This document shows, piece by piece, positions 12,001 through 15,000 of a DNA stretch of 55,048 bases; within the stretch, counting starts at the first letter, position 1; each line of letters begins with the position of its first letter. This DNA is from a virus (Duplodnaviria > Heunggongvirae > Uroviricota > Caudoviricetes): the IMG/VR virus record IMGVR_UViG_2541047910_000003, positions 1 through 55,048 of that record; one strand, given 5' to 3'. The position numbers are program-made.

Positions 12001-15000
12001 CCTGTGTATCCATTAGGCATACCAAATGAATACATCTAAATCGTGTAATATTCCGTACCTATAAGGCTTGAAACAGACAAAATGAATACGATATACTCAT
12101 TTGCATTGAAGTAGTGCCAAATCGATACATTAAGAGGATTTTATGAGCAATATCGGTTATAAGCGTGTGAGCACTGTAGATCAGAACACTGATCGCCAGC
12201 TTGCAGGAGTAACGCTTGATAAAGTCTTTGAAGATAAGCTGTCAGGTAAAGACACTAACCGTCCAGGATTGCAGGCGTGTTTATCCTATCTGAGAGAAGG
12301 CGACACCTTACACGTCCACTCTCTTGATCGTTTAGGGCGTAACACCTTAGACATTCTGGAGTTAATCAAACAATTGAATGATCGAGGTGTAATTGTTCGC
12401 TTTCACAAAGAAGGAATCATTGCTGACATTACAAGCGCGATGGGAAAGATGATGCTTACGATGTTGTCGGCAGTTGCAACGTGTGAACGTGAACTGATGT
12501 TAGAGCGTAAACGAGAAGCGCAAGCCGTCAATCCTACAAAGCGTGGTAAAGGGAAGGCAGTAGATAGGGAAGGTATAAAGAAAGCCCTTTCCGCTGGCGT
12601 GTCAGTGCGTAAAACCGCCGAGAGCTTTAATGTTGCTCCTTCAACGGTGCAACGTATCAAGAAGGAAGAAGAGGAGGCGTAATGCCTCCTTGATATTTGG
12701 GGATTCTGGATTTTCCAGATCGGGGGGCGCTGATCTTCGCGTTAAACATTGATCACGTTTGCGCCGATTTCAGATAAAAAGGCAGCTATTAAGCAATACG
12801 TAACTTTTACAATTAGTGAAATTATCTAAAACACAAGTTATATAGATGAGAAAATGAAATATTATCTTGAACAAATCAAACAAAACAACACATCATCTTG
12901 TTGACACCATGCAAAGTGAATAGTAAGCTATTATATGTGAAAATTTGCACATTGCATGCAATAAAAAATAAATGATACCTTGTTGTTGTTAAATCAATAG
13001 GGGGTATCTATGCGCTTTATCTTATCCATTTTAAAAACCTGCAGAACCACAATTACTTTAGCTGTAATTGTTACCATCATATACCTCATCTATTTTACCC
13101 CTCGAGATAAAATCGATTCACTAGCGATCATCGTTCATGCAATGGCTACATTAACTAAAAAACTTTAATAATTTCACTATCAGGCGCACAAACACATCTT
13201 TGATTGCTGGATGTGTTATGCGCCTACTGGTGATTCAATCCTTAAGCCATTTCAACTCACTAAGGAGTTTTCTTTCTTCGTTCTCTCGCTGTTTACGCTC
13301 TAGCCAGGCTTTTCCCTCTGGCGTAGACAGGAACTTACGAGCGTGAATCTTGCGGTTATTACGTTTTATAGCTGCAATGTTTTTCATCGTGTTGCCTCTG
13401 TATTCATATGAAAATTAACAAGTTACATACTACACAGGGAGACTACGCATAAAACACAATACAAGTAAAGATACATTTTCAAGACAATAGGAGCCATAAA
13501 GCGCCTTTGATGGTTATACCAAAAAATAAGCGCCGTAGGCGTATCCACTAAAAGGGCTTTTTCACAAAAGCTATGAAGTCTTAGCAGTTCTTCTCTTATC
13601 AGGCACCCGTTGTACTCCGGTGGACGAAACCGTGCTAGAGCTTGATTCTTTCCCGATCAAGTTAGGTTTTGAAGAGGTGGGCTTTAATCCACTATTGCAC
13701 TTAAAACTCTTCCCATCATTTAGCCTGTTTATCCTCTGCAACGTCTCACGACGTGTGGCATCATTGGACACCGCGCCAGGTGTGGAACATCTTGCTAAGA
13801 GTTTTGGTAGAAGGTTTAGAGACGGTGGCACGTCTTCCAGCTTCAAAGGAACTTGTTACGAGGTTGAGCCTGGGAACTACTCGCCCATACGTGTTACACT
13901 ACCAAAGCCCATAACAACGTATAGGCGTTTGTAAGTGATAACAGAAGATACAATTTCTTAGAGAAGTTAAGCTAAGTTATTGATTTTCTTAATGGTGCCG
14001 ATAATAGGAGTCGAACCTACGACCTTCGCATTACGAATCTGTAGCACCAATCATAACTATCTGTTTTAGCAAGCATTAACCGCATTCACTAAGCTATAGT
14101 TGATGGCACAAACAGAAAGCTGATGCATGATGTTGTCATGTGTATGTCACAAATACGGCACAACGATCTTCAAACATGTAGCCACTCAGCATAGAAGAGC
14201 ACAAAGCCTTGCAATCCAGTGCAAAGCTTTGTGTGTCTCAGTTTTTATAAATTCTTAAGCAAGAATTATAGTTATAACTATTATGTAAGTTTTATGATAT
14301 ATATTGTATTTAAATGCTGGTTTTACTTATTAACCCAACCTGTAGCATTTGTGTTGCTTTCCTTTATATAAAGTACTGTATTTCCACCTCCATCAGAACG
14401 AGTGTAAATAGAACCAACTGGTGCTCCAACTCCGCTAGATGTTGGGTTGCCTTCTTGCCCAAATATCACAAGTGAGCTTTTATCTGTAGCTTGATTATTC
14501 TGTGTGGCTGATGTTCCAAATGAAACATTCCCTATAAATGACACGCTCTTACAGCTTGATGTAGCAAATATACCAACTGATGGTTTATTATTTGCAACGC
14601 CATCACGAATTTGATTTGAACTAACAATTACATTTTCTGCACCAGAGTCAATTCGTATGCCATTATGGTTATTATCTGCGGTAGAAACCCCAACTATAAT
14701 GTTTGATTGAATAGTAACATTTGAATATTTACCATTAATATGAATCCCATGCAGGGAAATATTTCTAAAGATGTTGCTAGAAATTACAACATCATGCGAA
14801 AAACCAGACCCTATAAATTCTTCTGCATTAGTTTCAGAAATCCATAAAGAACTTGATGTTCCTGAATCGTATTCATTATTAGAGATGATTGATTTGTTAA
14901 TAAAATCACCTTTGAAAAAACCGATTCCGCCTCTTGCTGTGTTTCCAGTGACAGTTAGTCCTGAAACCCATCTTGCGTCTACTGCATATGATTGAGACTC

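Follow-up and report, generated by a model that had tools for sequence, protein, structure and literature searches.

P22-family phages integrate at thrW, and nested partial copies of a tRNA gene are a standard observation where islands stand in tandem, with the newest element lying nearest the regenerated tRNA. Williams in 2002 and later island-finding work reportedly described such tandem islands at tRNA and tmRNA genes, together with the sublocation preferences of integrase subfamilies. In Escherichia coli, thrW is among the most used integration hot spots (PMC7545054). The vat islands, published as VAT-PAI (PAI, pathogenicity island) or PAI-APECO1-thrW (Parreira and Gyles 2003, as cited in PMC7545054 and PMC6592367), have been placed between yagU and proA at this gene (PMC6592367; PMC7545054). 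PAI-APECO1-thrW itself, at positions 295124-315041 of avian pathogenic E. coli (APEC) O1, is about 20 kb long and was treated as a single unit (PMC7545054). Here, we analyze a stretch of 55,048 nucleotides of E. coli chromosome (IMG/VR virus record IMGVR_UViG_2541047910_000003, hereafter the window), in which the end of a vat island with a truncated P4-type integrase (hereafter the stump), a 12.54-kb element, and a 39.6-kb P22-like prophage lie in a row next to thrW (Table 1).

The window has much in common with these systems. As in P22, Sf6, HK620, and SfX, the prophage has the same 46-bp tRNA block, its integrase gene (int) lies beside the regenerated tRNA, and a sar/Ant immI region is combined with virion genes of the HK620/Sf6 type. 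It differs from those phages in being a mosaic with an early region like that of HK022 and mEp235. As in tandem tRNA/tmRNA islands generally, the integrases differ in the length of their identity blocks, here 21 and 48 bp, and nothing essential distinguishes the window from such islands. Since the stacking of elements at tRNA hot spots is textbook biology, the array itself is ordinary. The 12.5-kb element is more interesting than the array, as a possible phage satellite of a new kind.

Copies of the thrW 3' end bound two independent elements

We conclude, with a probability of about 0.8, that the window holds a tandem array of integrative elements at the thrW hot spot, built by the site-specific recombination of tyrosine recombinases. 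A repeat finder detected a single family, consisting of three copies of the thrW 3' end (A, B, and C). Copies B and C are 48 bp each and 100% identical, while copy A is exact over the first 21 bp of the repeat (AATGGTGCCGATAATAGGAGT). Both identity blocks run 2 bp (AA) past the tRNA 3' end, and their in-tRNA parts are 46 and 19 bp. The window has three occurrences of the 19-mer, whereas 100 shuffles gave an expectation of 0.00, even with three mismatches allowed. From start to start, the copies are spaced 12,540 and 39,612 bp apart. The 12.54-kb element (1451-13990) spans the interval between copies A and B. Copy B has a dual role: its first 21 bp are the tRNA-proximal attachment site (att) of the 12.5-kb element, and it is also the distal att of the P22-like prophage.

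These results bear out the repeats reported in an initial annotation of the window. The 46-bp copy at 13993..14038 and the 19-bp copy at 1453..1471 are both present, with full blocks of 48 bp (13991-14038) and 21 bp (1451-1471), respectively. The intact tRNA does sit beside the P22-like int, which stops 14 bp from the tRNA 3' end. That annotation also held that thrW had been rebuilt by the insertions. We find that the rebuilt tRNA with its first flanking bases is identical at 78 of 78 positions to the thrW locus of ATCC 11775, a strain with neither element. Among E. coli matches to the 12.5-kb element, many begin exactly at 1447 or 1451, and all stop at 14038.

The two elements occur independently of each other. 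We searched synthetic junctions, in which elements were absent or rearranged, together with the two real junctions of the window, in 5,426 complete E. coli genomes. A match is one contiguous piece with at least 80% query coverage, unless stated otherwise. With both elements removed, the vat stump would lead through the 21 bp into the rest of thrW and proA; this junction is present in 707 genomes, with identities reaching 100.0% (1,020 bp). In at least five genomes, the vat stump is joined directly to a P22-like arm and the 12.5-kb element is missing (71-74% coverage, about 99% identity).

The neighbors of the 12.5-kb element vary on both sides. On its left lies the vat stump in 71 genomes, which is the left junction of the window. 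A P22-type int stands there instead in at least six genomes, the reverse-order junction (P22-type int end, 21 bp, 12.5-kb int) being contiguous in six; other left neighbors also occur. On its right lies either thrW, in 393 genomes, or a P22-like arm, in at least seven. The former is the junction left when only the prophage is removed, and is also the predicted post-excision junction. The latter is the right junction of the window (element end, 48 bp, and about 200 bp of P22-like arm) and was matched at about 70% coverage; similarity stops at the variable tailspike end.

Whole loci agree with these counts. In strain 100416, the order is proA, intact thrW, the 12.5-kb element, 21 bp, and then a P22-type int accompanied by a lambdoid remnant, as expected if the latest arrival lies beside the tRNA. 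In strain CEA601S, junctions of both window types lie 12.4 kb from each other, pointing to an array of the same three tiers. Comparison of thrW loci across genomes, which the initial annotation had proposed, therefore yields arrays with neither, one, or both elements, at exact boundaries. The repeats lie at element boundaries, and independent occurrence in both orders shows that the 12.5-kb segment does not belong to the prophage.

The attachment site of P22 accounts for one of the two blocks. P22 attP bears the same 46-bp block (TGGTGCC...ATTACGAAT), identical to window positions 13993-14038. In its RefSeq record, P22 has an annotated attP core, AGTCGAACCTACGACCTTCGCAT, which corresponds to window positions 14009-14031; only 3 nt of it fall within the 21-bp block of copy A. 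Thus, a P22-type Int should not use copy A, and should excise only the 39.6-kb prophage, by recombination of copy B with copy C. All three occurrences of the pattern ATGKCACAAA in the window lie no more than about 110 bp from the att copies of the prophage. This suggests that they are candidate arm-type Int sites, although the pattern was derived from the same repeats that it then finds, and the clustering is only suggestive.

We propose the following mechanism. The attP of each element would hold a copy of the tRNA 3' segment, and the crossover would fall within that segment. The tRNA would then be regenerated from the copy carried by the element, and the original 3' segment would be displaced to the far end of that element. 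The two integrases would use adjacent parts of the 3' half of the tRNA: the P22-like Int the 46-bp identity block, as P22 does, and the DUF6538-type Int of the 12.5-kb element only the final 19 nt, from the T-loop to CCA, with the 2 nt that follow. Each element would be expected to excise singly, through its own Int and arm sites.

Table 1. Positions of the features discussed here, in window coordinates.
Feature	Position	Strand	Basis
MarR-family regulator vatX, vat island	1..525	+	Pfam MarR; open reading frame from window edge, RefSeq homologues 165 aa
Truncated P4-type integrase (stump), 112 aa	960..1298	-	PF13356 Arm-DNA-bind_3 only, E 9e-24
Copy A, 21 bp (19 nt tRNA + 2 nt), distal att of 12.5-kb element	1451..1471
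Full-length tyrosine integrase of 12.5-kb element	1558..2892	+	Phage_integrase + DUF6538 + SAM_5
phi92 gp135 homologue (Dit-like / tail-tube-initiator), 237 aa	2974..3687	-	61% identity, E 4e-93; PF21821
Tape-measure-like protein, 611 aa	3718..5553	-	phrog_16051; phi92 gp134, E 1e-33
Major capsid protein (E-type), 342 aa	5858..6886	-	PF03864
Conserved 120-aa protein, always upstream of capsid gene	6905..7267	-
Replication-initiator-like winged-helix protein, 243 aa	8977..9708	-	HTH_36; phrogs 270/391
Non-coding region, 2.1 kb, several tandem repeat families (including 11230-11295 and 11299-11402), possible origin/regulatory region	10040..12142
Serine recombinase / DNA invertase, 179 aa	12143..12682	+	Resolvase PF00239; phrog_125
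Copy B, 48-bp displaced thrW 3' end	13991..14038
P22-like (HK620/Sf6-type) prophage, 39.6 kb, apparently complete	14039..53602
Two ATGKCACAAA repeats near distal prophage end, candidate Int arm-type sites	14103..14163	+
sar antisense RNA, P22 immI region	17427..17493	+	Rfam RF00262, 77.7 bits
Prophage excisionase	52206..52553	+	42% identical to P22 Xis; phrog_2907
P22-family integrase, 386 aa	52430..53590	+	54% identical to P22 Int, E 1e-157
Third ATGKCACAAA repeat, int-side arm	53538..53557	+
Copy C of repeat, inside and just past thrW	53603-53650
Intact thrW, tRNA-Thr(CGT)	53605..53680	-	ARAGORN and Rfam calls
proA, conserved chromosomal flank	53795..55048	-	Annotated proA; 99.7% identical to E. 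coli 536

The vat remnant and the order of insertion

The leftmost part of the window is the remnant of a vat island. The truncated P4-type integrase of the initial annotation is indeed present, and forms the thrW-proximal end of that island. Residues 5-116 of the 439-amino-acid P4 Int align with it at 56% identity. Its open reading frame (ORF) ends at 112 amino acids and the catalytic domain is gone; homologues are tagged in RefSeq as 'incomplete, missing C-terminus'. The RefSeq gene order in NZ_CP159147 and in ATCC 11775 is stump, vatX, and then the vat autotransporter gene, and the vat island of ATCC 11775 is about 7.5 kb long. At its yagU-side end (locus 12899-14201), an integrase C-terminal fragment in the opposite orientation is accompanied by a frameshifted IS1. 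The original far end of the vat island appears to have been lost or rearranged.

In strain ZF8-1 (locus 5000-20400), an intact homologue of the stump heads a P4-like island of about 15 kb, beside a P22-like prophage. The island encodes a DUF927 primase, an Icd-like protein, an antirepressor, and a SEFIR-domain protein. It may resemble the ancestor of the vat island.

The published vat island can now be divided. Window positions 1-14038 align to positions 295074-308816 of APEC O1 (NC_008563), and the left end of the window (vatX and stump) matches VAT-PAI/PAI-APECO1-thrW at 99% or more. In contrast to the single published unit, the same DNA resolves here into a vat remnant of about 7.5 kb, which occurs alone in 707 genomes, and the self-contained 12.54-kb element, with the 21-bp thrW repeat between them. 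On the evidence of these alignments, PAI-APECO1-thrW is a composite of the two. The 22-kb VAT-PAI is probably composite in part as well.

The most parsimonious order of events is the vat island first, then the 12.5-kb element, and finally the P22-like phage. Because an incoming element normally inserts into the intact tRNA, the most recent one should lie nearest to that gene. A P4-type vat island (now about 7.5 kb, with its 112-amino-acid stump) would therefore have been followed by the 12.54-kb element and then by the 39.6-kb phage. Three observations support this order. First, the vat island is decayed, whereas the prophage is apparently complete. Second, genomes with the 12.5-kb element beside thrW outnumber those that have the array with a P22-like arm by about 50 to 1. 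Third, in strain 100416 it is the decayed P22-type element that is distal, while the 12.5-kb element stands at the intact tRNA. The three successive insertions of the initial annotation accordingly fare unevenly. The boundaries and the independence of the elements hold, and displaced copies document two insertions. The order is the likeliest one, and a third, vat-related insertion is suggested by the integrase stump and by the literature.

Several points weigh against this history. The map does not force the order, since copy B keeps the full 21-bp block and the T-arm; the 12.5-kb element could have entered after the prophage and left the same map. Inheritance, or import by homologous recombination, could account for all or part of the array, in place of assembly within this lineage. 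A distal thrW repeat for the vat island was not found between yagU and thrW in ATCC 11775, nor within 20 kb of the intact P4-type homologue in ZF8-1. Finally, the predicted attP 40-mer of the 12.5-kb element had no matches in public metagenome and viral contigs, in a search of low power, in which the integrated-junction control returned only six and three matches, respectively.

Assembly of the array outside this lineage, with the block inherited or imported through the proA and yagU flanks or the att copies, is unlikely but deserves the most weight among the alternatives. The vat and 12.5-kb pair is found as a block in 71 genomes and is treated in the literature as one 20-kb 'PAI-APECO1-thrW' (PMC7545054), and CEA601S has the same three-tier array. 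However, import of a block concerns the place of the events: the empty sites and the reverse orders still need separate insertions somewhere in the ancestry.

It is quite unlikely that only two insertions were directed at thrW, with the stump an unrelated relic and vat brought in by another route, such as transfer mediated by an insertion sequence (IS). In ATCC 11775, what lies toward yagU is the remnant of an IS1 together with a separate C-terminal fragment of an integrase, in place of a distal thrW repeat, as this route would allow. Yet the stump lies 152 bp from the tRNA end and in the orientation of the tRNA, which is the usual arrangement of P4-type islands. Furthermore, intact homologues of the stump (83-93% DNA identity) occupy the same position elsewhere, heading a P4-like island, and vat islands are associated with thrW in the literature (PMC7545054, PMC6592367).

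Arrival of the P22-like phage first, with later entry of the 12.5-kb element into the displaced copy B, is improbable. Copy B would be a plausible attB for an integrase that targets the T-loop, consisting of the whole 21-bp block and 27 more tRNA bases. Against this, the 12.5-kb element is beside intact thrW in 393 genomes, compared with at least seven that have its junction with a P22-like arm. Where a P22-type element is the older one, the 12.5-kb element sits at the intact tRNA rather than at a displaced copy, and the prophage of the window looks intact and recent. Movement of the 12.5-kb segment and the prophage as one composite unit can be dismissed almost entirely: they are adjacent and share a tRNA target, but each is found without the other, with exact boundaries and in both orders, they share no virion genes, and so little of the P22 core lies in copy A that a P22-type Int should not use it.

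Other thrW loci show further combinations. CP4-6 of E. coli K-12 has the same tRNA target, and a displaced thrW 3' copy (ptwF) marks its far end. Its integrase gene, intF, lies at the tRNA-distal end and reads inward, as does int in the 12.5-kb element. We considered whether the 12.5-kb element is an end module of CP4-6, and rejected this. IntF is 24% identical over the catalytic core only, and there is no DNA similarity beyond the tRNA copy. In K-12 (NC_000913, about 297190-297330), the 75 bp or so that follow ptwF resemble the prophage arm on the int side and include the TTGTGCCGTATTTGTGCCAT repeat. From this P22-like arm scar beyond ptwF, it appears that a P22-like element came first in K-12, in the opposite order to the window. 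In strain 10035004-3 (locus 20074-26000), the 12.5-kb element is separated from the expected position of thrW by another element, which encodes a partial integrase and a DUF4365 protein. Thus, thrW arrays can exceed three elements.

The prophage itself is a mosaic of known parts. Its virion genes have about 95% DNA identity to HK620, Sf6, and vB_EcoP-611R6, while its early region resembles HK022 and mEp235 (also about 95% DNA identity). Searches against PHROGs identified the tailspike, Ant, a DNA-transfer protein, the major head protein, portal, and large terminase, as well as a DnaB-like helicase, a CI-type repressor, the excisionase, and the integrase. This exact prophage is in none of the complete E. 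coli genomes searched, where matches diverge beyond about position 14245, at the tailspike end. The prophage also includes minus-strand genes for two tRNAs, Thr(TGT) and Asn(GTT), at 37348-37503.

Gene content and relatives of the 12.5-kb element

The 12.5-kb element encodes its own integrase. The boundaries and size given to it in the initial annotation stand, but that annotation missed this full-length gene, which is not of the P4 type. Translation likely starts at position 1615, giving a protein of 425 amino acids. The gene lies 87 bp from copy A and reads inward. We detected no similarity of the protein to P4 Int, nor to the integrase stump on the other side of copy A.

The junction predicted for the circular form of the element is GATTTTCTTAATGGTGCCGATAATAGGAGTAAAACACTCG. 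Two possible sources of evidence for mobility were set aside. Metagenome contigs of 11-13 kb with the capsid gene proved to be chromosomal fragments, with no circles among them that could represent an excised form. The IMG/VR contigs with the capsid gene cannot serve as evidence of packaging, as they are 19-76 kb long and far exceed the element. Judging from their identifiers, these contigs are presumably prophage calls from isolate genomes. The last 20 bp or so of the element (13970-13990, AAGTTATTGATTTTCTTAA) resemble the arm that flanks the attP core of P22-family phages. The match to SfX is 91% over window positions 13970-14038, while P22 and the prophage of the window have TTGATTTAA in that part of the arm.

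Among 19 ORFs of the element, searches against Pfam, PHROGs, and NCBIfam identified only the integrase, the major capsid protein, the tape-measure-like protein, the Dit-like protein, the winged-helix initiator-like protein, and the serine recombinase. No portal, terminase, sheath, or tube gene was found in the element, and no PADLOC defence model matched. The 2.1-kb non-coding region contains 13-bp units repeated four times at 11243-11295 and GGAAnTCATTTCC units at 11299, 11322, and 11380. An 18-mer is repeated exactly at 10828 and 10952, and there are 20-mers at 11608 and 11641. Rfam had no match in this region.

The virion-related genes point to phi92-like phages, which have myovirus genomes of about 148 kb and are strictly virulent. 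The capsid protein aligns end to end with gp124, the major capsid protein of phi92, at 22% identity. The tape-measure-like protein is 28% identical to phi92 gp134 over 474 amino acids, and 55% identical over the N-terminal 66. In phi92, the gene for gp135 comes immediately after that for the tape measure. Neither the 120-amino-acid protein nor a 72-amino-acid ORF has similarity to the phi92 decoration protein gp123 or to gp133.

Similarity at the DNA level occurs in the initiator-like gene and its surroundings. Positions 9353-9613, which encode the winged-helix domain, have 97% DNA identity to gene 154 of the phi92-like phage muut, and positions 9680-9846 have 99% identity to phage PaulScherrer. 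Both matches lie in early-region genes of Justusliebigvirus phages. This level of identity indicates recent exchange with a lytic phage. The iterons of the element are absent from the 5 kb around muut gene 154, and no close DNA relative of the element was found among 50,697 phage records.

Relatives of the element are broadly distributed among Enterobacterales. Members of the capsid family (342-348 amino acids) are encoded in chromosomes of E. coli, Citrobacter, Enterobacter, Klebsiella, Cronobacter, Dryocola, Serratia, and Sodalis. Their surroundings keep the same layout: an initiator-like gene, small ORFs, the 120-amino-acid protein, the capsid gene, an ORF of about 65 amino acids, a tape-measure-like gene of about 620, and a terminal integrase. 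This holds even where the capsid proteins are only 37-64% identical.

One relative, from Klebsiella pneumoniae (contig JBIQAP010000013, 1127-15142), lies at a tRNA-Gly(CCC) gene whose 3' end recurs as a 27-nt distal repeat at a distance of 13,939 bp. The DUF6538 integrase of this relative is at the tRNA-distal end, matching the geometry of the 12.5-kb element, and its iteron block (5138-5403) is analogous to the non-coding region 10040-12142. Between the two elements, the integrases are 34% identical over their full length, the tape-measure-like proteins 31%, and the 120-amino-acid proteins 66%. The last of these occupies the same position in four relative loci, including that of Klebsiella. 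The same gene order was observed in four further Enterobacterales loci besides this one.

A possible satellite family

The features of this family argue against random prophage decay, since the 11-14-kb size is conserved, the att sites are intact, and these virion genes alone are retained. We favor the view that the 12.5-kb element is a functional minimal element, most simply a putative satellite or interference island directed against phi92/rV5-like phages. We propose more tentatively, from gene content and synteny, that the whole family may represent undescribed tRNA-integrating satellites of Enterobacterales, 11-14 kb in length, which parasitize large virulent phi92/rV5-like myoviruses; the satellite reading is possible, but we do not regard it as probable. 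If so, the capsid protein, tape measure, and tail-tube initiator of the element would redirect or sabotage the assembly of the helper. Its replication would depend on an initiator whose DNA-binding domain was recently exchanged with that helper.

The element shares its general organization with the known satellites P4, the phage-inducible chromosomal islands (PICIs), the capsid-forming PICIs (cfPICIs), and the PICI-like elements (PLEs). Like them, it is a small integrative element with its own integrase and a replication-initiator-like gene. It also has an iteron-rich non-coding region and few virion genes, homologous to one phage group. Unlike P4-like elements, it has no psu, sid, delta, alpha primase, or P4-type int, and unlike cfPICIs, it lacks the set of portal, protease, connector, and terS. 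Its phage-related genes also differ from those of all four groups in matching the virulent phi92-like myoviruses of about 148 kb. To our knowledge, the combination of a capsid protein, a tape measure, and a tube initiator occurs in no described satellite. A literature search found no account of satellites of phi92-, rV5-, or Justusliebigvirus-type phages, or of satellites at thrW.

The array is a clean worked example of serial integration and is useful for annotating this genome. It also allows the published 20-kb thrW/vat island to be split into its real components. The consequences of the satellite reading, if it is true, would be wider. Part of the published 'VAT pathogenicity island' would then be an anti-phage parasite, and the element would provide an E. 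coli functional analogue of the relationship between PLE and the phage ICP1. Phi92-like phages, whose hosts are encapsulated extraintestinal E. coli, are potential agents of phage therapy. Should the 12.5-kb element be a satellite or defence island acting against them, it would represent a new satellite type that acts on virulent coliphages. It could then determine phage resistance in extraintestinal pathogenic E. coli, since 393 of the 5,426 complete E. coli genomes carry it beside thrW.

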